64,000 nt of DNA from Candidatus Wallbacteria bacterium (GCA_028687545.1 JAQTZZ010000002.1:139635-203634), one strand, 5' to 3'; shown: positions 1 to 36,175, counted from the stretch's first letter. A program made the numbers and translations. Notes: generated by a model not told the origin, from the sequence alone.

Positions 1-1989
1 AAGCTGATTCTGGAGAAAGCCCTTTTTTTTTCCGAGTCCGGCGATCAGGCTGAAGCGCTCAGGCTGTATCTGAAACTGGCTGAAAAGGATCAAGCGCAGG
101 CTGGAGAATATCTGGTCAAGGCAGGTAACCTGGCGCTTGGATTGAATCGGGTGAAACTGGCGCTGTCCTGTTACGAGCGTGCCTGTGCCTGTCATGACGA
201 TCAGCTGGTCAATGAAATGCTGGCTTTACTGTATCATAAAACAGGAGATTGCCTTAAATCCAGCCGCCTGTTCCTCGATTTATACAGAAAATACGGAAAT
301 CAGCACTATTTACTGGAATTTTTACGCATCCTCACCCTGAATCAGGAAACAGCGGCCCTGTTCCAGGCTGATTTGACTGATCTGGATAAAAACACTGCTG
401 AAATCGAAGCTCTTTTTCTGCTGTTTACTCTCAACCGATTTCTGAATCGGACTGAAATCTGCTCTCGGATCGCAGACCGGATTTTGCGTGGTGGGGGCAC
501 TTTTCATGCCGGGGAATGCGCCTTGTTTCTGTTCGGGCATTTTTCTGATGCCGGGAATTATGCGGAGGCCCTTAACAGCCTGAAAAAGGGTAAAAAATTC
601 ATCAATCCGGATATTTTTAATTTTCAGGCAGGGGAAATCCTTTGCCAGGCCGGTAAAAAGAGTCAGGCTTTGAAATACTTCAGCCGCCTTGGTGCAGCAG
701 GACTGGAACGGACACTGGCTCTGCTTGAATCGTTAGATAGACATCAGGAAGTGCTGGAGCAATGCCGCAATCTGGATCTGAATCAAAGAAACTGGGGGAT
801 AGTGAAGCTTTATCTCTCGTCCTTGTGGAAAACAGGTAAATATAAGGAAGGCCGGGAATTGCTGAACACAGGTGATTTTGCTAAAAACGAGGAATATTTC
901 CGCCTGAGAGAGGGATTCGTTCTGAAGGTGAAGGAGTGTGATCTCTTTCTAGCGGATTGTTATTACGCTGCAGGGTATTATGCCGCTGCCCTTTTAAAAC
1001 TGAAAAAGGGTAAAAATCTGATGGAGCAAAGGATTTTCAATTATAAAGCCGGGGAAATCCTTGATCAGGCCGGCAAAAAAAGGCAGGCCCTGAAATACTT
1101 TCAAAGGCTGGGAAAGAGCGAACTGGAACGGACACTGGCTCTGCTTGATTCGCTGGGCAGGAATCAGGAAATACTGGAGCAATGCCGCAATCTGGATCTG
1201 AATCAGGAGAATTGGGGTGTGGCGAAACTGTACCTCTCTGCCCTCTGGAAAACCGGCAATTATCGTGAAGGCCTGCAATTACTGAATGGCGACTTTGATA
1301 AAAACAGGGAATATTACAAACTGCAGAATGGATTCATCCAGAAGGTGAAAGAATGCGATTTGCTTTTAGCTGAGTGTTATTTCGCTGCCGGAGATTATGC
1401 TGCAGCCCTCGCAAAATTAAAAAAGGCGAAAACCCTGATGGACCGGAAGATATTCAATTATAAGGCAGGAGAAATCCTGGATCAGGCCGGCAAAAAAAGG
1501 CAGGCCTTGAAATACTTCCGCTGTCTTGGGATGATCGGGCTGGAACGGACACTGATGCTGCTTGATGAACTGGGCAGGGATCAGGAAGTGCTGGAGCAGT
1601 GCCGAGCGCTGGATCTGAATCAAATGAACTGGGGAATCGCGAAATTGTATCTCTCGACTTTATGGAAAACCGGGAATTATCGGGAAGGCCTGCAATTGTT
1701 CCAAAACTGCAATTTCGAAAAAAACAAGGAGTATTACCGGCGGCTGGGGGGATTCGCCCTGGAAACCGGTGAATACGAAACAGCTCTGGAAAGTTATTCC
1801 AGGCTGGAGAGTTCAGCAAAAAACCGGAAAGAAAGCCTGGAATTTCTGGAAACCGAAGGCTACATTCTCAGAAAATTAGGCAGGAGACTGCCGGCCTTGA
1901 AAAAATACCTGCAGCTTTTGAAGTTGCCAGGCCGGAAAATTCAAGCATTGAAAGCCATTCTCTGCACGCTGATTCCTGGGAAAAACTGA
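1..1989 (+). CDS. TPR-repeat C-terminal part of a radical SAM/SPASM–TPR fusion paralog; 5' end lies outside the window
   Basis: Frame 1 is open from base 1 to TGA at 1987-1989. Translation from base 1 (KLILEKALFFSESGD...) aligns with the mid-region of the two downstream paralogs. Three tandem ~140-aa modules (AGNYA.AL..LKKGK...FNY.AGEIL.QAGKK.QALKYF.RLG...LERTLALL.SL.R.QE.LEQCRNLDLNQ.NWG..KLYLS.LWKTG.Y.EG) and the shared tail ...LKAILCTLIPGKN. Confidence 0.75.
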   Translation, partial: KLILEKALFFSESGDQAEALRLYLKLAEKDQAQAGEYLVKAGNLALGLNRVKLALSCYERACACHDDQLVNEMLALLYHKTGDCLKSSRLFLDLYRKYGNQHYLLEFLRILTLNQETAALFQADLTDLDKNTAEIEALFLLFTLNRFLNRTEICSRIADRILRGGGTFHAGECALFLFGHFSDAGNYAEALNSLKKGKKFINPDIFNFQAGEILCQAGKKSQALKYFSRLGAAGLERTLALLESLDRHQEVLEQCRNLDLNQRNWGIVKLYLSSLWKTGKYKEGRELLNTGDFAKNEEYFRLREGFVLKVKECDLFLADCYYAAGYYAAALLKLKKGKNLMEQRIFNYKAGEILDQAGKKRQALKYFQRLGKSELERTLALLDSLGRNQEILEQCRNLDLNQENWGVAKLYLSALWKTGNYREGLQLLNGDFDKNREYYKLQNGFIQKVKECDLLLAECYFAAGDYAAALAKLKKAKTLMDRKIFNYKAGEILDQAGKKRQALKYFRCLGMIGLERTLMLLDELGRDQEVLEQCRALDLNQMNWGIAKLYLSTLWKTGNYREGLQLFQNCNFEKNKEYYRRLGGFALETGEYETALESYSRLESSAKNRKESLEFLETEGYILRKLGRRLPALKKYLQLLKLPGRKIQALKAILCTLIPGKN

Positions 1990-2000
1990 ATCTCGCTGAG

Positions 2001-4640
2001 GTGTGCGTGAACTTAAGAAAAATCGATATCCTCCAGTTTGCAGTCACTGACCGCTGCAACCTGAAATGCATCATGTGCCATCATGGTACGCTTGAGTATC
2101 AGAGGCAGTTGAAAAGTGATTTCAGCCTGGACCTTTTCCGGGGAGTGCTGGACGACATGGCTGGAAACGGCTTCAGTGCAAGGGCGCTCTATTTTTTCTG
2201 GAACGGGGAAGCTTTTCTGCTGCCGGATTTTTTGCCGATGCTCCAGTCTGCTTACAGTCTGAATTCAAGAACCCGGCTGTTCGACGTGGTTTACCTGAAC
2301 ACTAATGCCGGATTGCTCGATCCTGAAAAATCAGATCAGCTGCTTTCCCTTTTGAGCACTGACAAATCTAATGCTTTCTGCGTGCTGAATTTTTCCATAG
2401 ACGCTGTGAATGAGCAGACATACAACTCCATCCGCAGGGGCGGAAATTTCAGGAAAACAGTGGAAAACATCAAGTACCTGGTGAGAAAAGGATCTGAATC
2501 AGGGTTATCCAGCCTCTATTTCATCTTCCAGATCATAGTTCAGCCTGGAAATTTCAGCGAAGTGGGAGATTTTGCAGCTTACTGGAGCGGATTCCTCTCT
2601 GAACTTCAGCTGCCGCATGAAACCGTGGCGCTTATGGATCTGTCGTATTTAGGGATCCAGGAAAAAAAGAAACATCTGATAAACATCAGGCCGCTTCTGT
2701 TGAAAGGTTCCCCTGAATTCGACCGCAAAACAGAGGGAATCTGGAACTACTGGAAAAAAGTCCTGACTGAAGGTGAAAATCCTCCACTTCCGGAACTGCC
2801 GGATGATCGGCATTACATCGTGCCGCTTCCTGAACTGAATCTGGCGGCAAGAGAAAAACTCGCTCCGCAAAGGCGGTTCTTAGGCGGAGATTATCTCCGC
2901 AAAAATCCCTGCCCTTATTTGTTTAAAAATGTGCTGATCAGGCCTGACGGGGAAGTCAGCGTCTGCTGCCGCGACCCGTTTTCCCTTGGCAACCTGAAAA
3001 ACAGCAGATTCTCTGAAATCTGGCTTTCTGCCGAGGCAGACCAGATGCGAAAATTGAGCTTGAATCTGGATTTTGCATCCCTCTCGCCAGGCTGCGTCCA
3101 TTGCAGTGAAAGCGACGAATCTTTCTGGGAGATGCTGCATCTTGCGGAAATCAGCAGTTTTTACCAGGACCATCCGCCTGAGCGGATTGTATCTTTTGTG
3201 AGAACACTTCCTGAAGAGGATCAAAAGCTGATTCTGGAGAAAGCCCTCTTTTTTTCCGAATCCGGAGATCTTCCTGAAGCATATCGCCTGTTTTCAATGC
3301 TTGATGACTCGATGATCAGCTTGTCAGCACGGGCTTATTATGAATTCAAAACCGGGAAAATGGAAGAAGCTGTAAAGGATTATCTGAAACTGCTTCAATA
3401 CCCTGAATTGAAAAACCGCGGTGAAGTCATGCTTTCGCTGGCGATTTTGAAAATCGGGGAACAGAAGAATGAAGAAGGACTCTACTGGCTGGAGCAGGCT
3501 GAAAAAATTATTCCGAAACATCCCTTGGTGATTGAACAAAAAGCATACCTTTTAATGTCTGCTGATCCGCAAAAAGCTCTGGAGTACTTCAATCAGGCAG
3601 GGTCGTTTTTTAAGAATCAGCTTTTAACCCGGGAAAAACAAGATCTCTTTAGTTCTGAGCGAGCTTCCGGATATTATGCAAATGAAAGACATCTGAATGA
3701 GATGCTGGCTTTGTTATACAATAAAACAGGAGATTATCCCAAATCCTGTTGCTGGTTTCTCAGTTTGTACAAGAAATACGGAAACGAACATTATTTGCTT
3801 GAATTTTTACGCATCCTCTCTCTGAATCCGGATACTGCGCCTTTATTCAGGGACGATTTGACTGATCTGGATAAAAATGCCGGTGAAACTGAATCGCTCT
3901 TCCTTCTGTTTACACTCAACCGCTATCTGAACAGGAATGAAATCTGTTTCAGGGTCGCAAACCGGATCCTACGCGAACAACCAGGCACGCTTCCTGCCAG
4001 AGAATGCGCTTTGTTTCTGTCTGGTTATTGTATGGACGCCGGAAACTATGCAATTGCCCTCTCTGGATTGAAAAAGGGAAAAAAACTTATGGATCAGGAG
4101 ACATTTAATTACAAAGCCGGGGAAATTTTAGAAAAGGCAGGGAAAAAGAAGCAGGCCTTAAAGTACTTCATGCGTCTTTCTGAGGACGGTTTGGAACGGA
4201 AGCTGGCTTTGCTTGATTCTCTGGGCAGATCTCAGGAAATACTGGAATTTTGCAGCAGCGTGGATTTGAATCAAAAAAGCTGGGGTGTGATGAAAGTGTT
4301 TCTCTCCTCATTGTGGAAGACAGGAAAATACCAGGAAGGCTTGAAACTGATTAACAATTTTAAATTTGATAAAAATGAAGATTACTATCGGATGCAGGGT
4401 GGATTCGCCCTGGAAGGGGGTGAATATGAAACTGCCCTGAAAAGTTACGCCCTGCTGGAAAATAATACGGAAAACGGAAAGGATCGGCTGGAATTTCTGG
4501 AAACAGAAGCCTACATTCTCAGAAAACTGGGCAGAAAGCTGGAAGCTTTGAAAAAATACCTGCGGCTGCTGAAGTTTCCTGGCAGGCGAATTCATGCATT
4601 GAAAGCCATGCTCTGCACGCTGATCCCGGGGAAAAACTGA
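2001..4640 (+). CDS. radical SAM/SPASM domain protein fused to C-terminal TPR repeats (879 aa)
   Basis: GTG start 11 nt after the upstream stop. N-terminus FAVTDRCNLKCIMCHHG carries a CX3CX2C radical SAM motif, followed by FFWNGEAFL (GGE-like) and NTNAGLL. A Cys-rich SPASM/twitch-like segment follows (NPCPYLF...VCCRDPFSLGNL...SPGCVHCSESDE), then TPR-like repeats and the paralog-conserved C-terminus. Confidence 0.8.
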   Translation: MCVNLRKIDILQFAVTDRCNLKCIMCHHGTLEYQRQLKSDFSLDLFRGVLDDMAGNGFSARALYFFWNGEAFLLPDFLPMLQSAYSLNSRTRLFDVVYLNTNAGLLDPEKSDQLLSLLSTDKSNAFCVLNFSIDAVNEQTYNSIRRGGNFRKTVENIKYLVRKGSESGLSSLYFIFQIIVQPGNFSEVGDFAAYWSGFLSELQLPHETVALMDLSYLGIQEKKKHLINIRPLLLKGSPEFDRKTEGIWNYWKKVLTEGENPPLPELPDDRHYIVPLPELNLAAREKLAPQRRFLGGDYLRKNPCPYLFKNVLIRPDGEVSVCCRDPFSLGNLKNSRFSEIWLSAEADQMRKLSLNLDFASLSPGCVHCSESDESFWEMLHLAEISSFYQDHPPERIVSFVRTLPEEDQKLILEKALFFSESGDLPEAYRLFSMLDDSMISLSARAYYEFKTGKMEEAVKDYLKLLQYPELKNRGEVMLSLAILKIGEQKNEEGLYWLEQAEKIIPKHPLVIEQKAYLLMSADPQKALEYFNQAGSFFKNQLLTREKQDLFSSERASGYYANERHLNEMLALLYNKTGDYPKSCCWFLSLYKKYGNEHYLLEFLRILSLNPDTAPLFRDDLTDLDKNAGETESLFLLFTLNRYLNRNEICFRVANRILREQPGTLPARECALFLSGYCMDAGNYAIALSGLKKGKKLMDQETFNYKAGEILEKAGKKKQALKYFMRLSEDGLERKLALLDSLGRSQEILEFCSSVDLNQKSWGVMKVFLSSLWKTGKYQEGLKLINNFKFDKNEDYYRMQGGFALEGGEYETALKSYALLENNTENGKDRLEFLETEAYILRKLGRKLEALKKYLRLLKFPGRRIHALKAMLCTLIPGKN

Positions 4641-4652
4641 ACACGCGATGAG

Positions 4653-7600
4653 GTGTGCGTGAATTTAAGAGAAATCGAGATTCTTCAGTTTGCAGTCACT
4701 GACCGCTGCAATCTCAAATGCATCATGTGCCATCAAGGCACGCTGGAGTATCAGAAACAGATAAAGCGTGATTTCAGCCTGGACCTTTTCCGGGGAGTGC
4801 TGGACGACATGGCCGGAAACGGCTTCAGTGCAAGGGCGCTTTATTTTTTCTGGAACGGGGAAACGTTTCTGCATCCGGATTTTCTATCAATGCTTCACTA
4901 TGCATACAACCTGAATGCAAAAAACAGGATCTTTGACGTGGCTTATTTGAACACCAATGCAGGGTTGCTGGATCCTGAAAAATCCGATCAGCTGATTTCC
5001 ATCCTGGACAGGAGCGGCTCGAATGTTCTCAGCATCCTGAATTTTTCGATAGACGCAGTGAATGAACAGACTTACAAAGCCATCCGCAGGGGCGGGAATT
5101 TCAGAAAAACAGTGGAAAACATCAAGTATCTGGTCAGGAAAAGATCTGATTCAGGGTTGTCCAGCCTCTATTTTATTTTCCAGATCATAGTGCAGCCCGG
5201 AAATTTCAATGAAGTGGAGGATTTTTCTGCTTACTGGAGCGGATTCCTGTCGGAACTGAAATTACCGCATGAAATTGTAGCGCTTGAGGATCTGTCGTAT
5301 CTGGAAATAAGTGAGAAAAAGAAGCATTTGATTAACATCAGGCCTCTTCTGACCAAGGGAATTCCTGACTTCGACCGCAAAGCAGCTGGAATCTGGAATT
5401 ACTGGAAAAATGTTCTGATCCGAAGAGAGCGGGAAAATCCCCAGCTTCCGGAAATACCGGATGATCGATGTTACATCGTTCCGATTCCAGAACTCAATCT
5501 GGCTGCTTTAGAAAATCAGGCACCGCAAAGGCGATTCCTAGGCGGAACATACCTGCGGAAAAATCCCTGCCCCTACCTATTTAAGACCGCGTTGATCAAA
5601 CCTGACGGAGAGGTTACTGTCTGCTGCCGAGACCCGTTCCACCTGGGGAATCTGAACCAGAACAGATTTTCTGAAATCTGGCTCTCCCCTGATTCTGATA
5701 AAAAGAGAAATCTGAGTTTGAACTTGGACTTTGCCGCACTCTCTCCTGGTTGTGTCCATTGCAGTGATTGTGATGAATCATTCTGGAAAATGCTTTATCT
5801 TCCTGAAATCAGTAATTTTTATCAAAACAATCCTCCTGAGCAAGTTGTTTCCTTTGTAAGAACTCTTCCGGAAAAAGAGCAAAAACTGATCCTGGAGAAA
5901 GCTCTCTTTTTTTCCGAATCCGGTGATATTGCCTTGGCAGATCGCCTGTTTTCAATGCTCGATGATTCGGCGATCAATTTGATCGCCCGTGCCTCTTTTG
6001 AAGTCAAAACAGGGAAAACCGGGGAAGCGGTAAGAGATTATCTGAGACTGCTTGAATATCCTGAGCTGAAAAACCGGGGAGAGATTTTCCTCTCAGTGGC
6101 GATTCTGAAAATCAGGGAACATAAAAATGGTGAAGGTCTGCACTGGTTGGACCAGGCTGAAAATTTGATTCCTGATCACCCAAAATTGATTGAACAAAAA
6201 GCCTATCTTTTAATGTCCGCTGAACCGCAAAAAGCGCTGGAATATTTTCTCAGACTGGCCGCTCTGGCTGATAAATCCGAAAAGATCAGGATTTATCTGA
6301 ACTGTGCTCTACTCTGCTTTAAAACTCAAAATTCCGAGAAAGCCCTGGAATATTTGTGTCAAGCAGAACCGTTTCTTCCGGAAAACATTAGTGCTCCCGA
6401 AGATCTGGCCATCCGGGCATATCTGCTGGAAAAATTTGGAAAAACAGATGATGCGGTCAGGGATTATCTGAAACTGCTTGATTATCCGGATTTGAAAAAC
6501 CGGGGAGAAATAATGCTTTCGCTGGGACTCCTAAAACTCGGGATCCAAAAAAATGATGAGGGGCTGTATTGGCTGAATCAGGCTGAACAATTGATTCCTG
6601 ATCACCCCAAACTGATCGAACAAAAAGCCTATCTTTTGATGTCCGCTGAACCGCAAAAAGCGCTGGAATATTTTCTCAGACTGGCCGCTCTGGCTGATAA
6701 ATCCGAAAAGGGACGGATCTATCTAGCTTCCGCGTTTCTATCACAAAAAATGCGAAACCCTGAGAAAACCCTGGAATATTTGAGACAGGCTGAGCCATTT
6801 CTTCCGGATGAGATTGTTACTGGGGAAGTGCTGACCCAGAAAGCACATTTACTGGAAAATCTGGGAAAAACTGAAGAAGCATTCCAGGCATATCTGAAAT
6901 TAATCGAAAAAAATGGCCCGGCGACAGGAGAACATCAGCTCAAAGCCGGATATCTTGCACTGGAATTGAAAGATGAAAAGCAGGCATTGACCTGCTTTGA
7001 GAGCGCTTCCAGATATTGCACCAATGAATTGAGAATTAACGAAGTTCTGGCTTCCTTATACCGTAAAGAAGGAGATTATTCCAAATCCTGCTGCCTATTT
7101 CTCGGTTTGCATAAAAAATTCGGAAGCGAGCATTATCTGCTGGAATTTTTACGGACCCTCTCCCTGCATCCGGAAGTAGTGCCTTTATTTAGTGATGATT
7201 TGACTGATCTGGATAAAAGTGCCACTGAATCTGAAGCGCTTTTTCTTCTGTTCTCACTCAACCGCTCCCTGAATCGGACTGAAACCTGCTTCAAAATCAC
7301 AGAACGGCTGTTATCTGAAAAGGCCGCCAGTCCATATGAAAAAGAGTGCGCTTTGTTTTCAGCAGAGTATTTTTCAGCAGCCGGCAATTACGCTGCTGCC
7401 CTTTTCAGGCTGAAAAAGGGGAGAAAGCAGATTGATCAGCAGACTTTTAATTATCAGACAGGTGAAATCCTTAATAAAGCAGGCAAAAAGAGACTGGCAC
7501 TTAAATATTTCAGGAAGCTTGGTGAAGCCGGATTGGAACGCACCCTGGCTCTGCTTGATTCCATGGACAGATCTCTGGAAGTGCTGGAACTTTGCCGAAA

Positions 7601-7982
7601 TCTGGAGCTGATTCAAAAGAACTGGGGTAAAGTGAAATTGTATCTCTTGTCTTTATGGAAAACAGGAAAATATCAGGAAGGCATGCAAGTGTTCAATAAT
7701 GGCAATTTTGACAAAAATGAGGAATATTACAGGCTGCAGGGTGGATTTGCGCTTAAAACAGGGGAATCTGAAACGGCCCTGGCAAGTTACGCGATGCTTG
7801 AAAATACGGCAAAAAGCGAGAAAGACAGGTTGGAGTTCCTGGAAACCGAGGGATACATTCTCAGAAAATTGGGCAGGAAGAGAGAGGCCTTGAAAAAATA
7901 TTACCGGATTTTGAAGTCGTCTGGCCGTAAAATTCATGCTCTGAAAGCCATGCTCTGCACGTTTCTTCCAGGGAAAAACTGA
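4653..7982 (+). CDS. radical SAM/SPASM domain protein fused to C-terminal TPR repeats (1109 aa); longest paralog
   Basis: Same architecture as 2001..4640 (CNLKCIMCHQG; WNGETFL; VCCRDPFHLGNL; SPGCVHCSDCDE). The 5' ~110 nt are about 90% identical to the paralog. Extra length comes from inserted TPR modules, including a near-identical internal duplication. Confidence 0.8.
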   Translation: MCVNLREIEILQFAVTDRCNLKCIMCHQGTLEYQKQIKRDFSLDLFRGVLDDMAGNGFSARALYFFWNGETFLHPDFLSMLHYAYNLNAKNRIFDVAYLNTNAGLLDPEKSDQLISILDRSGSNVLSILNFSIDAVNEQTYKAIRRGGNFRKTVENIKYLVRKRSDSGLSSLYFIFQIIVQPGNFNEVEDFSAYWSGFLSELKLPHEIVALEDLSYLEISEKKKHLINIRPLLTKGIPDFDRKAAGIWNYWKNVLIRRERENPQLPEIPDDRCYIVPIPELNLAALENQAPQRRFLGGTYLRKNPCPYLFKTALIKPDGEVTVCCRDPFHLGNLNQNRFSEIWLSPDSDKKRNLSLNLDFAALSPGCVHCSDCDESFWKMLYLPEISNFYQNNPPEQVVSFVRTLPEKEQKLILEKALFFSESGDIALADRLFSMLDDSAINLIARASFEVKTGKTGEAVRDYLRLLEYPELKNRGEIFLSVAILKIREHKNGEGLHWLDQAENLIPDHPKLIEQKAYLLMSAEPQKALEYFLRLAALADKSEKIRIYLNCALLCFKTQNSEKALEYLCQAEPFLPENISAPEDLAIRAYLLEKFGKTDDAVRDYLKLLDYPDLKNRGEIMLSLGLLKLGIQKNDEGLYWLNQAEQLIPDHPKLIEQKAYLLMSAEPQKALEYFLRLAALADKSEKGRIYLASAFLSQKMRNPEKTLEYLRQAEPFLPDEIVTGEVLTQKAHLLENLGKTEEAFQAYLKLIEKNGPATGEHQLKAGYLALELKDEKQALTCFESASRYCTNELRINEVLASLYRKEGDYSKSCCLFLGLHKKFGSEHYLLEFLRTLSLHPEVVPLFSDDLTDLDKSATESEALFLLFSLNRSLNRTETCFKITERLLSEKAASPYEKECALFSAEYFSAAGNYAAALFRLKKGRKQIDQQTFNYQTGEILNKAGKKRLALKYFRKLGEAGLERTLALLDSMDRSLEVLELCRNLELIQKNWGKVKLYLLSLWKTGKYQEGMQVFNNGNFDKNEEYYRLQGGFALKTGESETALASYAMLENTAKSEKDRLEFLETEGYILRKLGRKREALKKYYRILKSSGRKIHALKAMLCTFLPGKN

Positions 7983-7994
7983 AGTTTCTATACC

Positions 7995-8108
7995 ATGTAC
8001 GGTAAATTTTGGTGGTGTGCAGCCGGATGTTTTTCGTGGACAATGATTTGTGGCGGGTCCTGTCTCTGCGTTACCCTTTTCTTTTCTTCGGTGGGCTCAG
8101 AAAATTAA
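7995..8108 (+). CDS. speculative 37-aa Cys/Trp-rich peptide ORF (MYGKFWWCAAGCFSWTMICGGSCLCVTLFFSSVGSEN)
   Basis: ATG at 7995, TAA at 8106-8108, 12 nt downstream of the third rSAM/SPASM–TPR gene. Five Cys and three Trp. No clear Shine-Dalgarno, and the region is GT-rich, which inflates Cys/Trp/Gly codons in this frame. Confidence 0.15.
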   Translation: MYGKFWWCAAGCFSWTMICGGSCLCVTLFFSSVGSEN

Positions 8109-8171
8109 AGGGTAACTCCGGCCACCCCACAAGGTTTCAGAAGAATAAATTGGAAAATTTACCCGCACGAA

Positions 8172-9332
8172 TCACTTTCTCAATATCTCAGCTTCCAGCG
8201 CCTGATATTTCTTCATGTTTTCATAAACAGCCAGATCAAAGCCATCCCAGTCGGGCATCACAACTGACTCCAGCGCTGAAATAAGTTCAGCCGCGTCACT
8301 GATTTTCACTCCGATCCTGAGCCGCTCCAGCAGTTCAGACTCGATTGCGAAATTCCGCATGAACGGCCCGTAAATCACCCGGCAGCCGGCCTGGGCCGGT
8401 TCCAGGATATTGTGGCCTCCCAGATTGAGGAAACTTCCGCCCACAAAGGCAAATTGAGCCCTGCCGTAAAATTCAGCCAGCACTCCCATCCTGTCGATCA
8501 GCAGAAAGTCGCCATACCAGTTTTCCCCTGAGCTTAAAAGTTTGCCTGTAAAACCAAGATTCGACGCGTCTTTCAGCACCTGCCTGCAGCGTTCCACATT
8601 GCGCGGTGCCAGAGCTACCCTGAAGCCCTGCTTCCTGATTTCCCGCAAGGCAGCGAACAGGACTTTTTCATCCTCAAAATGCGTGCTGCCTGCAATCAGC
8701 AGTTTTTCCTTATGCGCCACTTTTACACAGCCTGGCAGGAGCTTGAAATTCACAGGCAGCCGGCAGATGATGCCCGCTTCGTTCAGAAATCTCTGATTAA
8801 GTTCGTCTTTGGGATAGACGTTCCCATTTTTCAGACAGATTCTGTAGAGCGAAAAAAAGCGCAAAAGCTGACGATTTGCGTTAGAGAGGCGCACATTCAG
8901 CCAGAAAAGCGGGATATAGCGTTTCTTTGCAGCCAGCATCAGATTCGGCCACAGGTCCACTTCAGAGACTACTATTTTTCTTGGTTGGACTGTATCAAGC
9001 ATTTTCCCGACTGCAAAGGAGAAGTCCAATGGCGCGAGCATCACTCTGCGCGTCAGGTTTTCCCAGTTTTTCTTCAAGTGAGCAACTAGCTCTGTGTCAG
9101 GAGACAGCACCAGGCAGGAGCTGGCTCGCTCGGCCATCCCTGCAATGTTTCTGAATTCCCCGAAAGAGACAGTAAAAAAAACAACTGGTTTATCAAGTTC
9201 AGGGTAATCCACAAAACCCAGCCAGGACTTGAAATTCGCGAAGCTGATCAATTCCTTGTTGTATAAATAAACCAGAATCAGCGGAGAACAAAGCAGCAGG
9301 AAAAAAAGATAGGCAAGATCAATCAAGGCCAT
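8172..9332 (-). CDS. waaA: 3-deoxy-D-manno-octulosonic acid (Kdo) transferase
   Basis: Translation carries Kdo-transferase motifs (GSTHFEDE, FVGGSFLNLGGHNILEPAQAG) and an N-terminal membrane anchor. Start set at the ATG giving MALIDLAYLFF (cat at 9330-9332), a 14-bp overlap with the upstream acyltransferase gene. Confidence 0.8.
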   Translation of the reverse strand: MALIDLAYLFFLLLCSPLILVYLYNKELISFANFKSWLGFVDYPELDKPVVFFTVSFGEFRNIAGMAERASSCLVLSPDTELVAHLKKNWENLTRRVMLAPLDFSFAVGKMLDTVQPRKIVVSEVDLWPNLMLAAKKRYIPLFWLNVRLSNANRQLLRFFSLYRICLKNGNVYPKDELNQRFLNEAGIICRLPVNFKLLPGCVKVAHKEKLLIAGSTHFEDEKVLFAALREIRKQGFRVALAPRNVERCRQVLKDASNLGFTGKLLSSGENWYGDFLLIDRMGVLAEFYGRAQFAFVGGSFLNLGGHNILEPAQAGCRVIYGPFMRNFAIESELLERLRIGVKISDAAELISALESVVMPDWDGFDLAVYENMKKYQALEAEILRK

Positions 9333-10140
9333 AGGTACGCTTCTTAAATCTGTCGTAAAACAACTGCCACTGTTCAGGCACTTTCCTGACAACCTGGTCG
9401 TAGAATTCAAGGTATCTGCGACTTTGATCCTCAACCGATTCATCCGGATTGGCTGAAGTCAGATTCTCAAGCACAATCCTGTGAAATCCATTTTTTTTCC
9501 GCTTCAGGTAAATTCCCACTACAGGAAGCCCGTATCGCTTTGAGAGCCTGGCAGGCCCTGCCGGGAATGACACATCGCATCCGCACCAGGAGAGCCTGAT
9601 CCCGTTCGGTCCTCCGTCATGGTCTGAGATCAGGCCCAGCACTTCCTTTTTCCTGATCAGCCTGAGAACCCCCAGAATGTTGTCATGGTCGATCAATCTG
9701 ATTCCGACCTTATCCCTGTAACTGTTCAATATTTTCTCCTGCAGTTCGCTTCTGGCGCGCAAGTAGATCGAAGTGAGCGGCAGCCCGTATGCCACCAGAG
9801 CACCTCCCAGCAGTTCCCAGTTTCCCAGATGCATTGAGAGAAAAATCATGGCTTTCCCGCTGCTGCGCGCTTTTTTCACCAGTTCCTGATCGAGCTCGTC
9901 AAAACGCACGATCCGCCTGATCTGATCCGGAAACAGGCTGAAATAAAAAAGTTCAAAGAGCAGCTGCCCCTGCTGTCTGAAAAATTCCCTGACAGTCTTC
10001 TGAAGCTTAAATTCACTGATGTCAGGGAAAAGAGCCCGCAGATTCCGCTCAGGCACCTCGGCCAGGGAGGGGGCGCACCGATAAACAAACAGCCCGATAA
10101 GCCGGGCTGTTGAACTTCCAATCCTGTATAAAAGCATCAC
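9319..10140 (-). CDS. lpxL: lipid A late acyltransferase, LpxL/HtrB (lauroyl/myristoyl acyltransferase) family
   Basis: 273-aa product with the family's size and layout (MHLGNWELLGG; DHDGGPNGIRL). Overlaps the giant gene's stop by 4 bp and waaA's start by 14 bp. The exact paralog (LpxL, LpxM or LpxP) is not resolvable. Confidence 0.7.
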   Translation of the reverse strand: MMLLYRIGSSTARLIGLFVYRCAPSLAEVPERNLRALFPDISEFKLQKTVREFFRQQGQLLFELFYFSLFPDQIRRIVRFDELDQELVKKARSSGKAMIFLSMHLGNWELLGGALVAYGLPLTSIYLRARSELQEKILNSYRDKVGIRLIDHDNILGVLRLIRKKEVLGLISDHDGGPNGIRLSWCGCDVSFPAGPARLSKRYGLPVVGIYLKRKKNGFHRIVLENLTSANPDESVEDQSRRYLEFYDQVVRKVPEQWQLFYDRFKKRTYGLD

Positions 10141-13100
10141 TCTTTTTCAGCTTCCAGGTCTTTCCAGAAGGTGGTATTGACACGCTTGGGCTTGAGCATT
10201 TCCTGCGCTTCCCTGGTGATCTCGCTGTCTACAGGAGCCAGGTTGACGACTACGATGAACTCTGCCACAGCCTCGTCGATCATGCCTTTATCGCGGTAAG
10301 CTTTGCCAAGGTAGAAATGCGCATTGACATTGTTCTCGTCCAGAGCGATGATCCGTTTGTATTCCAGCACAGCGTCGTCCAGTCTGCCCTTCTTCAGATA
10401 GAGGGAAGACAGGCTGAAATGGGCATCCAGGTTGCGGCTGTCCCGGCGCAGGCCCTCTTCCAGCATCTTGGCGGCTTCCTCGAATCTGGAAAGCTCTTTA
10501 TAAACTTCTGCCAGCATGAAATAACCCTGGGCTCCCTCAGGCATCAGGCCGATCACCTTCTGCAGTTCTTCCAGCGCGTAATCGTACAGTTCGCGGTCCA
10601 GATAGATCTGGGCCAGCATGTTATGCGCCTCAGTTTCCTGGGGATTTTCGCGGATAATGTCCTTGTAGGCGGTGATGGCACGGTCGTAAAGCTTCTTGTC
10701 CTTGTAGATCCTGGCGAGCGACAGTCTGGCCTTGAGACTCACAGGCTCCACTTCGATCGCTTTCTTGTAATATGAGATCGCTTCCTCCATCATACCCTTG
10801 CCGACGTAGAGGTCTCCAAGATAGATGTATGGTTCGGCCTTGCCAGGTTCGATCTTGCGGCATTTTTCCAGCACCACGATCGCATTGTCGTTCATCTTGA
10901 GGCGCAGGAAAAGCTTGCCCATTCCCATGTGAATCCTGTAATCCTGCGGCCGCTTTTCCGAGAGCTTCTGATAGATCTGCCTGGCTTTCTCGTCCTCGTT
11001 CAGCCCCTCGTAACATTCCGCCTCTTTCCTCAGCAGTTCCTCGTCGTCCTCCCGCTCCAAGAGCAGCTTCTGGAAATAGCGCAGGGCTTCCTGGAATCTG
11101 TTCTTCTTGAAATAGATGTTGCCGATGATTTCCAGTGATTCCTGGCTGTCCGGGAAATTGCCGAGCACTTCATGCAGGAGAGGCAGGGCGTCATCCAGTT
11201 TGCCGATTCTCACGTAGCAGCGGGCGAGGCGGATCTTCAATTCGTGATCCTGAGAGACTTCCATCGCCTTCTTGATCTCAGCCACAGTTTCCGAAATCAT
11301 GTCCCTGCTGTAGTAGATGTCTGCCAGGAGTTTGTAAGCTTCCACCGAATTCCTGGGGTAATATTCCTTGATCTTGGAAAGCACAGTCACGGATTTCTCG
11401 AAATCACGCAGATGCCAGTATGTTTTACCCATCCAGAGCAGCAGATCAGGGTCTTTTTCCTTCAGCTCCCTGGCTTTTTTAAAATAGTCCAAAGCTCCTT
11501 CTGGATTTTTTTTAGTTGCTTCGATCGTGCCCAGGCGGTAGAAGGCTTCGAAGGAATTGGGGTCGAGATAGAGGAGTTTCTGGTAGAGTTCTTCCGCTTC
11601 CTTGAAGCGTTTCATCGAGAGATAAACCTCTCCCATTTCCCGCAGGAATTCCTGATTATTCATGCGCAGGTGGACAGCCCGCTCGAGACAAGGCAGGGCG
11701 GCCTTGAGGTCACCCCTGCTGCGGTGGATTCTGCCCATTTCGAAATAGGCTTCCACAAAATTGGGGCTGACTTCGATCGCTTTCTGGAAAAGGCGGATGC
11801 TGTCCTCAAGAAGCTTCCGCTCCAGATAAATCATGCCCAGATAATAATATGCTTCGGCCCGGTTGGGGTCATTCAGAACTACCTGTTCCAGATGCTTGAG
11901 CGCCAGGTTGAAATCGTGTTCCTGGTAATAGATTGTCCCCAGCTCGAAGAAGGCGTTGATATCTTCCCCGTTCTTTTCAAGATATTTCTCCAGGTTTTCC
12001 TTGGCTTCCGAAGTTTTACCCATGCCCTTTTCAAGCAGTGCCAGCCTGTAGCGGGTGTCCTTGTAACCTCCGGTCATCTCGATCACTTTCAACAAATTCT
12101 GATACGCCTTATCCGGCTTGCCGAGCTTCTGATATACATAACCTGAGAGGTAATACGCTTCAGGCTCGCCGATCGACAGATTGCGGGCTTTTTCATACTG
12201 CGCGATGGCCTCGTTCAGCATGTGGGCTTTCTCATAAGCAGTTCCCAGAGTGATCCGCAGGTCGTAAGAAGCCTCGTCGAGATAAGTGGCTTTCTCCAGG
12301 TAGGAAATGGCTTCGTCGATCCTGTCGCGCTCGATCAGGATCTTCCCGATGTCGTGCATGGCAGGCTTGAATCTCGGATTGTACTGGATAGCCCGCTCCA
12401 TGTTCCTGGTGGCCGCGTCCAGCATGTTCTGCTGCCAGTAAATGCGGGCCAGCCAGTAATAAGCTTCGGCCGTTTCCGGCCAGCGCTCGATCAGACGCTT
12501 GAAGAGCGACTGGGCGGAATCGTATTTTTTCTTTTCGAAATAGCATTTCGCCAGCAGCAGGTTGGTTTCCCTGTCGTCAGGAGTCAGGCGTGACTGCTCG
12601 TCCAGAAATGGAATGGCATCATCGATCTGGTCCTCTTTCAATCTGAGCTTTGCCAGATACAGATTCACCTGTTCAAAAGCATTGTTTAAAGAGTAAACCT
12701 TGCGGAAGAGGTCGGCGGCTTTATTCAGATCGCCAAGTTTGAAGGAGATCAGCCCGAGTTCGTAATCCACAGTCGGAGTGCTTTCCTTCTCCATCTGCCG
12801 CAATTCCTGAAGCTCGATCTCAGCTTCGCTGAAACGCTCCTTTTCCCGGTAGAGTCTGGCAAGATAGATCCTGACTCTGGGTTCAGCGGGAAGCAGTTCT
12901 TTCAGTTTCTGGAATTTGAACAGCGCGTCCTCGAAATCACCGTTGTAGTAGTGGGCTTCCCCGAGATTCATAAGAATTTCAGGGGTTTCCTTCCTCTCCA
13001 CGACAGCGCGATATTCATGGACAGCTTCTGCATATCGTCCCATCTTGAAATAGACCTGTGCCAGCCTGCTCCTTACCCCGACGTCGTCGGTATTGAAATT

Positions 13101-16100
13101 CAAAGCTCTGCGCAAGGATTCCTTGGCTTTCTCATTTTCGTTCATAGCGATGAAAATTTCCGCTTCGATGGACAGAAGTTCGGCGTCCTTATCACGGGCC
13201 GGAACAGGTTCCAGGGTTTTAAGGGCCTGATGGGTGTTTTCACTAAGCAGATAGGCTCTGGCAAGCAGCTTGCGGCCTTCACAGTCCTGCGGGCAGATCT
13301 TCATGAAACGTTCCAGTTCCAGGATGGAATTGGCGTAATCGCACTTGGCGAAATAGCTCTGCGCAAGCAGCAGGCCGTAACGCGCTTCCCCGGTATTTAC
13401 CATCAGCTTGCGGAAAAGTTCCACGGATGTTTCCAGGTCTCCCCTTGCTCTGGCGATCAGTCCTCCCAGTTCCTCGATCCGCTGCTCTCCGGCTCCCCCT
13501 GCCTTTCCGAGCCATTCGGAGGCCTGCTCGAAATTTCCCTGCTTGTAATTCAGCAGCGAGAGGTAATATTCGGAGCCTGCATCAGGAGATTGAACCAGCA
13601 CAGCTTTGAAATCAACAAGGGCCTGATCGTATTCTCCGTTCTCGAGATGAATTTTCCCGATCTCCAGATTATTCTTGCACTTTTCAAAACAAAGGAGCGC
13701 TTTTTCCCGTTCGTTGCCCGCAAGATACAGCCTGGCAAGTTTTTCGAACATCTCAGGGGGCTTGTCGCCGGGAAAATTTTCCAGCGCTTTGACCGCACCG
13801 GTAAGATTGTTCTGCTCTTCCATGATTTGTGAAAGCATCATCCGCAAGTCCATCTGCACCGGGGATAAGAAGATGGCACGTTCCAGCAGGAATGCCGCCT
13901 TGTCCAGCTTGCCGTCCTCCCGGTAAATCATGGCCAGAAGCTGATAAGGGAGAAAATTGTCAGGTTTGAGCGGGATCACTTTTTCCAGGATCTTCTCGGC
14001 TTCCCGCTTGAGCTTCCTGTCGAAATACGCGGCTGCCAGTTCGGAGAGGAGGGTAAGATTTTCCGGATCCTTATGCCTGGCCTTTTCCAGGATGGAAATG
14101 GCATCACCGGCCCTTTTGTCTTCCCTGAGCATCCGGCCGAGTTCGATGTATGAGTCCAGATAGTTAGGCAGATTCTCGATCAGTTCCTCCAGGATCTTCC
14201 TGGCTTCTTCCCGTTTGCCGGCCAGCTGATAAATCCGGGCCAGATTGTAACGCGCGCTCTCATGATACGGGTTGAGCATCAGGAGCTTTTTCACGGCTTC
14301 TTCTGCCAGGTGATAATGTCCCTGCTCGAAATAGATCCGGCTCATGAACAGCCAGGGATCCTCGCTGGACGGATGATGGCTCAGATATTCCTCGAAATCC
14401 TTCTGCGCCAGCACATGTTTTTTCAGATTGAAATTGATCTTGCCTGAGAGCAGGATATATTCAGGGTTGGGGTCAGGGGTTTCCCTCAAAAATTCCACTT
14501 TTTCCGCCGCTTTTTCGTAATTCCCGGTTTCAAGGTAGCAGACTGTCAGCAGATAACCGACATCTTCTGAAACCCGGTCCAGCTTCTCGGCTTTCTGCAG
14601 GAAGGAAACCGCATCCCCGTGACGCTTCTGATCGATCAGAATCCTGGCTGCATCGAGCAGTACCGCGAGTTTCTCCGGAGCAAGCTCCACCGCCTTATCC
14701 AGGGACTTTCTGGCCAGATCGTGTTTTTCCTGACAGGCCAGCACTCCGCCGAGCATCAGGTAAGCCTGGCTTTCGCGCTTGTCTTTACAGATTTCCCGTA
14801 GAATCTCCTCAGCCTTGGCATGGCTCCCCTTTTTCCAGTATGCATCGGCCAGTACCATGCCTGCGGAATAATTCCCGGGCCAGAGCGGCCGCAGGAGCTC
14901 AATCACCTGGCCGAATTCCTTCCTGGTCAGATAGATTCTCCCGAGAAATTCACGGACTTCAGCGTTTTCGGGCTCGAATTTCAAATATTGCCTGAAGTTC
15001 GCTTCGGCCTGGACGAAATCCTGTTTGTGATAATAAATCCTGCCTGCCTGCAGGAAAGCCTGCTTGAAGCTGGGATTCAGTTCCATCACTTTTTCCATGG
15101 CCAGCAGGGCATCCTGCTCTTTGCCAAGTTTCTGATAGACCTCGCCAATTTCAAAATAGGCCTGATATGAGGAAAAGTCGATCTCGACAGCCCTGTGGAA
15201 CTCGTTCAGAGCCTCTTCAAACAGACCCTGTTCCTTGAGTATTTTTCCCAGGTAAAAGTAAGCGTCAAAAAACTTCGGCTGATGAAGCAGGGCTTTCTGC
15301 AGAAGTTCCTTGGCGTCATTGAGCATTTTCTGTTCCTTGTAGACCATGGCCAGCCCCAGCAGCGCCTGGAAGTTTTCGGGTTCATTGTCCAGAATGGACT
15401 TGAAGAGCAGGTTGGCTTCAGTCACTTCGCCGTTGGCAAGATATGCCTGCCCCAGTTCCAGGTAAGCGCCGAAATCGCTCGGAGTTTGAGAAATTGCCGT
15501 TTTGAACGCTACTATCGCATGAGAAAGCTTGCCGCGCAGCCTGAGTATCTTTCCCAGCAGGTAATGATAACCCGGGACTTTTCGCTCTTCAGGGATTTCC
15601 CTGATGATGCGCTCAGCATCGACGACCCGGCCCAGCTCGAAATATGCCCGGACCAGTTTGAGCTTCAGCTCAGGGCTTTTCAGACCGGAGGGCAGGCCTT
15701 CCAGGAAATCGACCGCCAGCAGGTAGTTGTTCATCTCAATCAGGCAGTCGGCTTTCCGGGAATACACCTCACGGTCGGATGGAGAAATCTTCAGCGCACG
15801 GTCGTAAAGTTTCAAAGCCTCGTCGAACAGTTTCCGCTTCCTGTACGCGCTGCACATGCACAGGTAAGCATCAACGCTTTCAGGCTTGATCTCCAGAAGT
15901 TTCTTCAAAATGGAAATCCCGTCGTCAAAATTGCTGTTCCTGAAAAAGGCTTCAGCCAGCATCAGATGGAATTTCTCATTTTCCCTCTGTATGCTCAGTG
16001 CTTTCCCGAGATATTCGGTGGCCAGTTCCAGCCTGCCTGCGTTCAGGTTCGCTTCACCAAGACAGGCATAAATCTCTGCGTCCCGGTCCTTTTCCTCGAT

Positions 16101-20469: not shown

Positions 20470-20994
20470 TCAGATCCAGTCAAGCAGATTCTCAAGCGAT
20501 TCCACTACGCAGCAGTCCAGTCCAGCCACCTTGCCCTGCTCACTCTCCCCGTAACCTGTCAGCACCAGAAAGCTCTTCTTCAACCCGGCGTTGAGTCCGC
20601 AAAGGACGTCAGAGTGCTTGTCGCCCACGAGGAATGATGATTCAAGGTCCAGTACGTATCTGTCCCGGGCCTCAAAGATCATACCAGGTTCAGGCTTCCG
20701 GCAGCTGCAGGGTCCGCTGTAATCCGGATGATGCGGGCAGATCAGAAAATCGTCGATCAGTCCGCCTGATTTCCGATTCAGTTCTTCGTTTACGGCCTGG
20801 GCAGCGGCCAGGTTGTACATCCCTTTGGCGATCCCGGCCTGGTTTGTCACAACGAGCAGGAGAAATCCCATTTCTTTCAGTTTTTTCAGGACTTCCGGAA
20901 CACCGGGTAACAATGCAACTGCAGCCGGATCGTGCAGGTAGTTCCGTTCAACTATCAAGGTCCCGTCACGGTCAAAAAAGAAAGCTTTTTTCAT
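20470..20994 (-). CDS. gmhB: D-glycero-beta-D-manno-heptose 1,7-bisphosphate 7-phosphatase (HAD family)
   Basis: FFFDRDGTL (HAD motif I), VVTNQAGIAKG, and the GmhB zinc-binding signature CPHHP...C.CRKPEPGM; 174 aa. Confidence 0.8.
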   Translation of the reverse strand: MKKAFFFDRDGTLIVERNYLHDPAAVALLPGVPEVLKKLKEMGFLLLVVTNQAGIAKGMYNLAAAQAVNEELNRKSGGLIDDFLICPHHPDYSGPCSCRKPEPGMIFEARDRYVLDLESSFLVGDKHSDVLCGLNAGLKKSFLVLTGYGESEQGKVAGLDCCVVESLENLLDWI

Positions 20995-21005
20995 CTCAAA
21001 AGCCC

Positions 21006-22100
21006 TCAGCTTCCGATTCCCAGAACTTTTTCATAGGCTGAAAGAGTTTTCCTGGCTGTTTTCTCCCAGGTGAATTCTTTGCTGACTCTCTCTTTCAGAC
21101 GGCTGTTAGGCTGGGCTTTCCAGGCCCCTCTTAAAGCCTCCGCAATGCTGTCGACATTTCCCGGATCGCAGTAAAAGGCTTGATCCCCGAAATATTCCCT
21201 GGTGCACCCACCTTCGGTCACCACGAGCCTGCAGCCGAACAGGGCTGCCTCCAGCGAGGCGAGTCCTGGAGTTTCGAACCAGCTGGGCAGGGCATGTACC
21301 CTGGCCCTGCGATAAAACTTGCAAAGTTCCCGCTGCGGCATCGCCGATAATATTTCAGCGTTCCGGCCCTTCTCAAGCATGATTTTCGCATAAAGCTTCC
21401 GGTAACGCTTTTTCCCTGAAACAGAGCCGATGATCACTAGCGGCAGGTCGAGAAGGTTGGCGGCCCGGACCAGATTCAACCTGTTCTTGCGGTCATCGAT
21501 CCTGCCGACAGAGAGAACGAAATCCTCGAAGTCAATCCCTGGAGGGGATTCATCTCCTGTGGTCTCAACCAGATCCGAGTCGACGGCGTTCGGGATCACC
21601 ACAGCTTCAGCGGTTTTCCCGAAAAACCGCTCGAGATTGGAGATTTCCGCTCTGGAATTCGGCAGCAGCAGATCCACCCGGGAGAGGACGTCTCTGATCG
21701 CCTGGTAGTTTTTCAGGCTGGTGCTGCCTCCCCTGAACCTGCGGAAAGCTCTTTTAAAACCGAGCGAAAGGAAATCGATCAAATCCTGGGCAAGGTGCCG
21801 CAGCGGAATCTCCTGGTACCAGAAAACAGTGGAAAGGACGACTGGAGGCCGATTCGCCGGAAGTGCGTTAAAAAAAGAGATTACCTCATCCGAAAATCGG
21901 AAAAGGTGTATCAGGTCGCATTCTTTGGATTCAGCCGGATGGTTGAGGTACCGCACCTCACAGCCAAGTTTCCTCAAGTGCTGAGCAGTTTTATAGATCT
22001 GGGTCTCGGCACCCCCAGTCCGGAATTCCAGCCCTTCCAGAAGTTCAGAATAGAAGCCGATTTTCAAACTACTTAATTCCCTGTAAAGTCTGATAATCAT
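21006..22100 (-). CDS. glycosyltransferase family 4 (GT-B fold)
   Basis: C-terminal GT4 motif region (RARVHALPSWFETPGLASLEAALFGCRLVVTEGG). Start placed at the ATG at 22100; the track's TTG at 22127 would overlap rfbG more deeply. Confidence 0.7.
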   Translation of the reverse strand: MIIRLYRELSSLKIGFYSELLEGLEFRTGGAETQIYKTAQHLRKLGCEVRYLNHPAESKECDLIHLFRFSDEVISFFNALPANRPPVVLSTVFWYQEIPLRHLAQDLIDFLSLGFKRAFRRFRGGSTSLKNYQAIRDVLSRVDLLLPNSRAEISNLERFFGKTAEAVVIPNAVDSDLVETTGDESPPGIDFEDFVLSVGRIDDRKNRLNLVRAANLLDLPLVIIGSVSGKKRYRKLYAKIMLEKGRNAEILSAMPQRELCKFYRRARVHALPSWFETPGLASLEAALFGCRLVVTEGGCTREYFGDQAFYCDPGNVDSIAEALRGAWKAQPNSRLKERVSKEFTWEKTARKTLSAYEKVLGIGS

Positions 22101-23136: not shown

Positions 23137-23282
23137 CAGTCCTCCCAGACAAGTGAGAATGATATATCTCCTGCATTCACCCGCAGGTTATTTGTCGCTC
23201 AATCCAGATTTTATCATAAATCCTGCAATTTCATCAATTCAGAGAGTGGATAAAATCTTGTTTCTGAGATACAATTCGTGTC

Positions 23283-24320: not shown

Positions 24321-24344
24321 GGAACGGTCGCGACTGTTCCCTAC
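24317..24344. terminator. 28-bp near-perfect palindrome spanning the stop codons of two convergent glycosyltransferase genes
   Basis: GTAGGGAACGGTCGCGACTGTTCCCTAC is self-complementary except for one G·T pair; it contains TAG at 24318-24320 (+ gene) and the complement of CTA at 24341-24343 (- gene). No flanking T-tract. Confidence 0.4.
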
Positions 24345-26274: not shown

Positions 26275-26406
26275 GCTGTCTCCAAATATTTTTCAGCTAT
26301 GTATTGTCTCAATATATGGGCTCCCAAAAGCAAAGTCAACAGCAGCCTGCCGATATTTATGAGGCTGTTGCTTGATTCAAGCCTGAGACACGCATATAAT
26401 TTTCTC

Positions 26407-28407: not shown

Positions 28408-28424
28408 CTCCCAGTGAGTGACCA

Positions 28425-29267: not shown

Positions 29268-29282
29268 GGGCTCTCCTCCGTC

Positions 29283-36134: not shown

Positions 36135-36175
36135 ATCCCGGATTCTAAGTCATTCTGTCTGTTATTTGCAAGAGT

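Follow-up and report, generated by a model that had tools for sequence, protein, structure and literature searches.

The window analysed here, a stretch of 64,000 nucleotides (nt) from Candidatus Wallbacteria bacterium (GCA_028687545.1, JAQTZZ010000002.1:139635-203634), opens with an array of three neighbouring paralogous genes whose products join a radical S-adenosylmethionine (SAM) core and a twitch domain to a long region of tetratricopeptide repeats (TPR). The reading towards which we lean, with moderate assurance, is that genes 1-3 encode glycan-directed twitch radical SAM enzymes with TPR docking modules; they would be three diverged, functional, cytoplasmic paralogs. This reading is put forward because glycosyltransferase (GT) and nucleotide-sugar genes surround distant members of the family, because the catalytic module is fused elsewhere to GT4, carbohydrate-binding module (CBM) and GDSL domains, because one paralog of the same genome overlaps a GT4 gene, and because a gene cluster of lipopolysaccharide (LPS) type lies beside the array.

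The array consists of three open reading frames (ORFs) that fill window positions 1-7982 on the plus strand:

1..1989, plus strand: gene 1, 3' part, truncated by the window start; 662 C-terminal residues out of 1068, with the TPR region and the conserved tail
2001..4640, plus strand: gene 2, 879 amino acids (aa), radical SAM, twitch, then TPR; probable start GTG at 2007
4653..7982, plus strand: gene 3, 1109 aa, same architecture as gene 2; probable start GTG at 4659

The ORFs and their Pfam scores bear out an earlier note, made from the sequence of this window, which had described three same-strand tandem radical SAM genes with a cysteine-rich domain and TPR; the spacing of 11-12 nt given there is exactly 11 nt between genes 1 and 2 and 12 nt between genes 2 and 3. 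No promoter-like or terminator-like signal stands out between the array genes, so the three probably form one transcription unit, and promoter, terminator, tRNA and Rfam scans of positions 1-8400 returned nothing special. Gene 1 starts 1218 nt upstream of the window. Its complete product could be recognised in a Candidatus Wallbacteria metagenome-assembled genome (MAG) by an exhaustive search of 1.84 billion cluster representatives: the 1068-aa protein P0009 (MDD2714555.1) is identical at its C-terminus to the 662 residues of gene 1 in the window, and its first 406 residues are a radical SAM/twitch module as in genes 2 and 3. It follows that all three genes share the radical SAM/twitch-TPR architecture. 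The shared N-terminal domain proposed earlier is thus present in all three, in gene 1 outside the window, with a length of about 400 aa rather than 330; of the suggested upstream continuation of the array, only the 1218 nt of gene 1 itself stands. Since P0009 begins with MDLRK, translation of genes 2 and 3 probably starts at the second GTG (2007 and 4659), which follows a GAGG motif. The tail LKAxLCT(L/F)(I/L)PGKN ends all three proteins.

The catalytic module, about 400 aa long, is assigned to the radical SAM enzymes by a profile score above the curated cutoff (Pfam Radical_SAM, PF04055, residues 15-171: 38.0 bits in gene 2 and 48.6 bits in gene 3, cutoff 29.5) together with a partial TIM-barrel fold. 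Its elements in the window are the following:

2055..2078, plus strand: gene 2 CxxxCxxC motif (C19, C23, C26; CNLKCIMC), predicted SAM-binding [4Fe-4S] site
2910..3104, plus strand: gene 2 twitch domain, C304-X12-G317-X4-C322-C323...C365-X2-C368 (Pfam SPASM, motif scan, BtrN alignment)
4707..4730, plus strand: gene 3 CxxxCxxC motif (CNLKCIMC), found by motif scan
5568..5771, plus strand: gene 3 twitch domain, C306...C324-C325...C367-X2-C370-X2-C373

The C19-x3-C23-x2-C26 motif is also present in P0009 and hence in gene 1, and the VCCRDPF..LGNL and SPGCVHC motifs occur in genes 2 and 3; these motifs, CNLKCIMC and the common tail had all been read correctly in the earlier note. The cysteine-rich segment scores above the cutoff of the Pfam SPASM model (PF13186, cutoff 21.5) with 42.2 bits in gene 2 (residues 304-368) and 38.7 bits in gene 3 (306-373), a profile that is also matched by twitch-type sequences, including all members of this family. 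The seven-cysteine SPASM motif attributed to Grell et al. in 2015 is said to read CX9-15GX4C - gap - CX2CX5CX3C - gap - C and to bind the two clusters AuxI and AuxII. Against these seven cysteines, only five are conserved in the auxiliary domain across an alignment of 56 homologs, where C19/C23/C26, C304, G317, C322, C365 and C368 are nearly invariant, as expected of the cysteine conservation that the earlier note had assumed; the CX2CX5CX3C block of full SPASM was found in none of the 15 family sequences inspected. SPASM domains hold two auxiliary clusters, and a twitch domain is a shortened form of SPASM with one (PMC9012708). Because only the C-X12-G-X4-C-C...C-X2-C pattern is present, with no CX2CX5CX3C, the auxiliary domain is predicted from its cysteines to be a twitch domain with one auxiliary [4Fe-4S] cluster and not a full SPASM domain; the "SPASM/twitch-like" segment first described passes the Pfam SPASM threshold and has the twitch rather than the seven-cysteine pattern.

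When solved structures were searched with a family profile, BtrN came first (E 1e-25), ahead of CteB (1e-15) and MoaA (4e-11), with further matches to SkfB, anSME and tetraether synthase; a PDB search with a single sequence found nothing. BtrN, the founding twitch radical SAM enzyme, is the 2-deoxy-scyllo-inosamine dehydrogenase of butirosin biosynthesis (PDB 4M7S/4M7T). It has the same succession of a CxxxCxxC radical SAM core and a one-cluster twitch domain, and the alignment spans the whole twitch domain cysteine for cysteine: C169, C187, C232 and C235 (4m7s_A numbering) align with C304, C322, C365 and C368 here, and the motifs G-x4-C, GN and W..R around the twitch cysteines are common to both. 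The BtrN substrate, an aminocyclitol, resembles a sugar, in keeping with the glycan surroundings of the family. BtrN, which serves an aminoglycoside pathway, stands alone with about 250 aa, whereas the proteins of the array add an insert of about 100 aa (residues ~205-300), the conserved C323 and a TPR extension of 470-700 aa. Compared with anSME, CteB, SuiB, PqqE and AlbA, they lack CX2CX5CX3C and the final cysteine (the second auxiliary cluster) and have no RiPP recognition element (RRE; RiPP, ribosomally synthesised and post-translationally modified peptide). A sugar-modifying radical SAM family, which the earlier note had named as a placement that would speak against its SPASM assignment, is approached by the profile searches, with BtrN as best match, though short of strict placement in such a family. 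Among curated models, the best scores over 57 family members came from NF033640 (twitch radical SAM), TIGR04321 (spiro-SPASM) and TIGR04317 (tungsten cofactor oxidoreductase maturase), with 55-63 bits where the cutoffs lie at 170-380; membership was thus not reached, and those families have other architectures, for example an N-terminal twitch domain, or a different context. Searches of Pfam, NCBIfam and the PDB gave no curated family or solved structure that covers the radical SAM/twitch-TPR architecture, which agrees with its earlier description as uncharacterised. NCBI labels the family proteins only as 'SPASM domain-containing protein', and the family is uncharacterised. The AlphaFold model of residues 1-410 (predicted local distance difference test, pLDDT, 88.3; predicted template modelling score, pTM, 0.89) was matched by Foldseek to anSME, DesII, CteB and viperin.

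The C-terminal half is recognised as TPR partly by profile and partly by model. In gene 1, TPR_2 (36.3 bits, cutoff 27), TPR_16 (35.1, cutoff 32.7), TPR_19 (34.0, cutoff 25) and ANAPC3 are above the Pfam cutoffs, and in gene 3 TPR_8 (28.1 bits, cutoff 25.7) and TPR_14 (27.1, cutoff 23.5); gene 2 stays below them, and its assignment comes from the AlphaFold model and Foldseek:

3222..4622, plus strand: gene 2 TPR superhelix, residues 408-874, paired helices

Foldseek matched this part of gene 2 to Ctr9, the OGT TPR domain, Ski3, BBS4, subunits of the anaphase-promoting complex (APC/C), SPINDLY and Tom70. The full-length model has pLDDT 84.2 and pTM 0.59, with low-confidence linkers at residues 534-560 and 618-627. 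OGT and SPINDLY are comparable in that a long TPR superhelix is joined to a carbohydrate-related catalytic domain (TPR matches to 1w3b, E 3e-9, and 7y4i); however, their TPR is N-terminal and their catalytic domain is GT41, whereas in the array proteins a radical SAM domain is followed by a C-terminal TPR, and the resemblance is one of design only, since the catalytic parts are not homologous. Over its last ~190 residues, the tail shows homology to those of P0032 (33%, E 1e-20) and P0055 (27% over 188 aa, E 8e-17), two further proteins of the same MAG. A word-index protein search gave no tail homolog, a weak negative as proteins of the source MAG are apparently invisible to that index, and only 8 weak matches for the catalytic domain, an understated number since the exhaustive search gave P0009, P0010, P0032 and P0055.

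The ages of the copies differ from what had been supposed. The 5' ends of genes 2 and 3 had been called about 90% identical and the expansion recent; this level is confined to the first 60 codons (~180 nt; 90.6% identical, synonymous divergence dS 0.36), which looks like local gene conversion or constraint, whereas the whole genes share 76% nucleotide and 73% protein identity, with a nonsynonymous divergence (dN) of 0.16, dS ~1.0 and dN/dS 0.16. Because synonymous sites are near saturation (dS ~1), the duplication of the array is old, which contradicts the recent expansion and rules out a recent duplication. Compared with genes 2 and 3, gene 1 gives dN/dS values of 0.14 and 0.25. Purifying selection acts on every copy, and dN/dS of 0.14-0.25 together with intact reading frames rules out pseudogenes or an array in decay. 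The catalytic modules of the paralogs are 73-80% identical and the last 330 residues 51-66%, and the TPR halves differ chiefly through in-frame tandem duplication of units of about 140 aa, each corresponding to about four TPR motifs:

702..1697, plus strand: gene 1 internal tandem repeat, in-frame; unit 417 nt (139 aa), 2.4 copies, 78% matches
6006..6871, plus strand: gene 3 internal tandem repeat, in-frame; unit 426 nt (142 aa), 2.0 copies, 77% matches

The MAG that contains genes 1-3 holds four further members of the family, bringing the total to at least seven:

P0010: 549 aa, 45% identity, short helical tail
P0032: 756 aa
P0055 (MDD2715387.1): 878 aa, TPR fusion
P0071 (MDD2714748.1): 1229 aa, CIA30/CBM11 carbohydrate-binding modules, then radical SAM-twitch

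In a neighbour-joining distance tree, genes 1-3, P0010, P0024, P0019, P0032 and P0055 fall into one clade of 15 members. No relative was found in species-representative genome contigs queried with the gene 2 domain and the P0009 N-terminus. When the top 150 homologs were surveyed for fusions, the same catalytic module appeared with several partners:

GT4 glycosyltransferase: P0051, P0128, P0130
CBM11 or ConA-type lectin: P0071, P0087
TPR and GDSL hydrolase: P0043
TPR alone: P0015, P0019, P0050, P0053, P0055
B12-radical SAM: P0020, P0086, P0144

P0087, from a second Wallbacteria MAG, carries a lectin, a CBM and the radical SAM-twitch module. Fusion to TPR is not unique to the array, being present in at least five other clusters of this survey. 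One long relative from another organism, P0024 (L003 1215-4799, Logan ERR11443746), is a 1169-aa radical SAM-twitch protein with a long helical tail whose ORF begins with MCHQ, inside CxxxCxxC, so that either its N-terminus has decayed or the sequence holds a frameshift or an assembly error; a 416-aa family member directly follows it.

The neighbourhoods of distant relatives are dominated by carbohydrate genes. An untargeted metagenome scan with four close query sequences gave 80 loci, none above 35% identity, and no orthologous array was found among these relatives, all at 35% or less. Within three positions on either side of the family genes in 34 loci of at least 10 kb (187 genes, assigned by Pfam), the commonest neighbours were GT2 (18 of 187), class-I methyltransferases, GT1/GT4 (~12), B12-radical SAM proteins (11), epimerases/dehydratases of the short-chain dehydrogenase/reductase (SDR) type (8) and cytidylyltransferases (7), and a Wzx-type flippase, polysaccharide deacetylase, NeuB and UDP-GlcNAc 2-epimerase were also among them. 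Glycosyltransferases make up about 1-2% of bacterial genes; set against this usual share, their enrichment near family members looks strong. With ad hoc hidden Markov models, a GT or SDR gene was found within three genes in half of these loci (17/34) and anywhere in the locus in 23/34. Two loci illustrate the pattern: in one from a Pseudomonadota MAG (L007), three family members and three B12-radical SAM genes lie in a nucleotide-sugar/GT cluster with an epimerase, GT2, a sugar nucleotidyltransferase, a GHMP kinase, a DegT aminotransferase, a SIS isomerase and methyltransferases, and in another (L005) an array of family genes stands between GDSL hydrolases and a PMT_2 glycosyltransferase. Among 51 loci of 8 kb or more, 8 have family members in tandem, which makes arrays a recurrent but minority trait. 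Another array is that of L004 (3529-10355, JGI 3300033149), with five consecutive family genes and six radical SAM-twitch domains, the last gene being double; a PAS histidine kinase and a 57-aa ORF ending in KCQLGCF lie directly upstream of it.

SPASM and twitch radical SAM enzymes are often taken as markers of peptide natural-product clusters, and the earlier note had implied a peptide-maturase role. In such a case the proteins would be RiPP maturases with TPR in place of the RRE, and the paralogs would crosslink precursor peptides encoded upstream of the window. The Pfam SPASM score, a weak resemblance to NCBIfam models of peptide maturases such as WgkB, AlbA and SCM, and a fold similarity to CteB, SuiB, SkfB and ChlB are consistent with this, as is the existence of other tandem arrays, among them that of L004 with its preceding small ORF and a Peptidase_C39 gene about 3.6 kb upstream; what precedes gene 1 lies outside the window. 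The same profile searches argue against it in their scores: the models for AlbA, WgkB, SCM, CcpM and PapB reach at best 48 bits with the window proteins against cutoffs of 300-850, and the best NCBIfam maturase score is 63 bits against cutoffs of at least 170. Neither Pfam nor NCBIfam gave an RRE or PqqD-like match, and the radical SAM motif, starting at residue 19, leaves no room for one, in line with the absence of an N-terminal RRE noticed at the outset. No precursor, protease or exporter genes are seen beside the same-genome paralogs (L001, L002, L088), and no precursor gene lies downstream of the array, where 7983-8171 is a convergent intergenic region; RiPP-type families are missing from the 25 commonest neighbour families of the 34 loci. 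With a twitch rather than a SPASM cysteine pattern, BtrN as the closest solved relative in sequence, and carbohydrate neighbourhoods and fusions, the peptide-maturase role is not supported, and we regard it as improbable.

A protein substrate would be a different matter, and the locus of P0055 bears on it. In L088 2-7153 (same MAG, Logan SRR22315507), one strand carries a T2SSE ATPase gene, two T2SSF genes, a gene for a 417-aa weakly AAA-like protein, P0055 and a GT4 gene; both P0055 junctions overlap the neighbours, with 4 nt of overlap at the GT4 start, and this adjacency mirrors the radical SAM-GT4 fusions found elsewhere. The string could serve pilin or surface-protein glycosylation. Under the alternative, the enzymes would modify proteins in the manner of anSME: the TPR region would capture a specific protein, such as a pilin, a surface glycoprotein or the giant repeat protein near the array, and a residue or a protein-linked sugar would be modified. 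This accords with the habit of TPR superhelices to bind proteins or peptides (the model matches the TPRs of OGT, SPINDLY, Tom70 and APC/C), with the T2SSE/T2SSF genes of a Tad or type IV pilus-like system in the string of P0055, and with the giant repeat proteins near family members, one of 2656 aa (HEAT/TPR) that lies 2 kb downstream of the array and one of 1422 aa (HEAT) in L006. However, anSME is a full SPASM enzyme with two auxiliary clusters and this family shows the one-cluster twitch pattern; no candidate substrate gene is conserved across the paralog loci, and the GT4 and CBM fusions and the neighbourhood statistics favour sugars. Overall a protein substrate appears unlikely, less so than the peptide-maturase role; if the target were the glycan of a glycoprotein, this explanation would fuse with the glycan one. 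A conserved partner gene upstream of the dispersed paralogs had also been considered and was rejected, the upstream ORFs of L001 and L002 encoding unrelated secreted proteins.

The array itself is followed by the start of an LPS/surface-glycan region (8172..10140, minus strand), which resumes at 20470-31902:

8172-9443, minus strand: Kdo (3-deoxy-D-manno-octulosonic acid) transferase, assigned by Pfam, convergent with the array
9319-10140, minus strand: lipid A late acyltransferase, assigned by Pfam, convergent with the array

Past a giant repeat protein and RadA, the run holds a HAD phosphatase, GT1, epimerases, a heptosyltransferase and GT2, along with methyltransferases, a sugar C-methyltransferase, RmlC and FkbM, and the array may be functionally linked to this region. 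That its nearest neighbours are genes for a lipid A acyltransferase and a Kdo transferase could also be read in favour of a lipid substrate, the enzymes then acting, like the tetraether synthase Tes, on the acyl chains of the outer-membrane lipid that the adjacent LpxL and WaaA make. The Tes match is confined to the radical SAM core, the LPS neighbours are convergent, the family-wide neighbours and fusions are sugar enzymes and carbohydrate-binding modules and not lipid enzymes, no membrane-protein family is matched and the N-terminus runs straight into the catalytic core; a role in modifying lipid or lipid A is accordingly held to be very improbable.

Several points weigh against a glycan role and have to be set beside the evidence given above. 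The similarity to BtrN is remote (~16-20% identity), and no family member has a demonstrated activity. Fold searches place anSME, ChlB, SuiB, SkfB and CteB about level with sugar enzymes and, because their lists mix both enzyme types, the predicted fold alone does not tell whether an enzyme acts on sugars or on peptides. Proteins or peptides, rather than sugars, are the usual ligands of TPR domains, and the predicted orientation of the domains in gene 2 is unreliable (pTM 0.59). Roughly a third to a half of the distant family loci are not obviously glycan clusters; among the closest relatives (L001-L004), no GT flanks the family genes, and the L004 array stands behind the 57-aa ORF, with Peptidase_C39 (a partial first gene) about 3.6 kb upstream. 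The LPS genes beside the array, being convergent with it, are not co-transcribed with it, and the region upstream of gene 1, a possible site of a precursor-peptide or partner gene, lies beyond the window.

The analysis shows how the domains are arranged, which cysteines are present, that selection is purifying and that the family keeps company with carbohydrate genes and domains; for the glycan-directed enzymes that we favour, we infer from this what class of substrate they use, which reaction they carry out and what the TPR region does. The N-terminal module of ~400 aa would bind SAM at its CxxxCxxC [4Fe-4S] cluster, and the BtrN-like twitch domain would hold the one auxiliary [4Fe-4S] cluster. 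A hydrogen atom would be abstracted from a carbohydrate, either a nucleotide-sugar or a lipid-linked or nascent surface glycan, and the auxiliary cluster, acting as electron acceptor, would permit oxidation, epimerisation or related tailoring; by analogy with BtrN, abstraction from a sugar followed by oxidation or epimerisation seems the likeliest chemistry. The C-terminal TPR superhelix would be a docking module that tethers the catalytic domain to a glycosyltransferase or to the glycan-assembly machinery, and duplication of the ~140-aa module may diversify it, each paralog possibly having its own target or partner. A broader and more tentative proposal, to which we give limited credence, is that of an uncharacterised class of radical SAM enzymes which tailor surface glycans or glycoproteins on the assembly line, rather than free small-molecule sugars: interchangeable TPR, CBM and GT4 modules would bring a BtrN-like twitch domain to sugars on different polymers or proteins, and in Wallbacteria the toolkit would have grown to at least seven members.

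Nothing relevant came out of literature searches for twitch radical SAM enzymes that are fused to TPR or encoded in glycan clusters. To our knowledge, there is no characterised example of radical chemistry on bacterial surface polysaccharides, and literature searches found none; if the glycan role is true, such chemistry would be new, and one catalytic domain would be subject to modular targeting by TPR, CBM and GT4 parts. For a sizeable twitch subfamily whose context and fusions point to carbohydrates, annotation as RiPP maturases would mislead genome mining. The array would also give a first functional lead for a gene expansion in the candidate phylum Wallbacteria, of which we know of no cultured members.

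Other observations in the window and in the loci of relatives are given here in their own right. Giant repeat proteins co-occur with the radical SAM family in the window and in L006: the 2656-aa protein of the window (10137-18107, minus strand) has N-terminal HEAT-like repeats and then dozens of TPRs and is flanked by the acyltransferase and RadA genes, and the 1422-aa zinc-ribbon and HEAT protein of L006 (4686-8954) directly precedes a family member. A GDSL/SGNH hydrolase-TPR fusion (L001 10344-11933) adjoins P0010 in convergent orientation, to be compared with P0043, which unites GDSL, TPR and radical SAM-twitch in one protein. A HemN_C-type (HemW/HemN-like) radical SAM gene (L002 12261-13400) overlaps the end of the paralog P0032, and a second one (L004 16517-17737) lies about 6 kb from the L004 array; this may have come about by chance or reflect a shared accessory.

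At the far end of the glycan region (34216-39503, minus strand), two more radical SAM genes accompany an asparagine-synthase-like gene, and these may be more tailoring enzymes:

34216-35547, minus strand: UPF0004 and Radical_SAM (MiaB/RimO type)
36176-37855, minus strand: radical SAM protein, 559 aa
37857-39503, minus strand: asparagine-synthase-like gene

The glycan run is interrupted at 32030-34085 by two ORFs with no Pfam family above cutoff, the first of 266 aa with a weak CAP12/Pycsar TIR match (E 6e-4, below cutoff) and the second of 422 aa with an N-terminal zinc ribbon. Further on, at 40121-43273 on the plus strand, genes for BKACE, a zinc-type dehydrogenase and lysine 2,3-aminomutase form a group of the lysine-fermentation type, which belongs to ordinary metabolism and is unrelated to the array.

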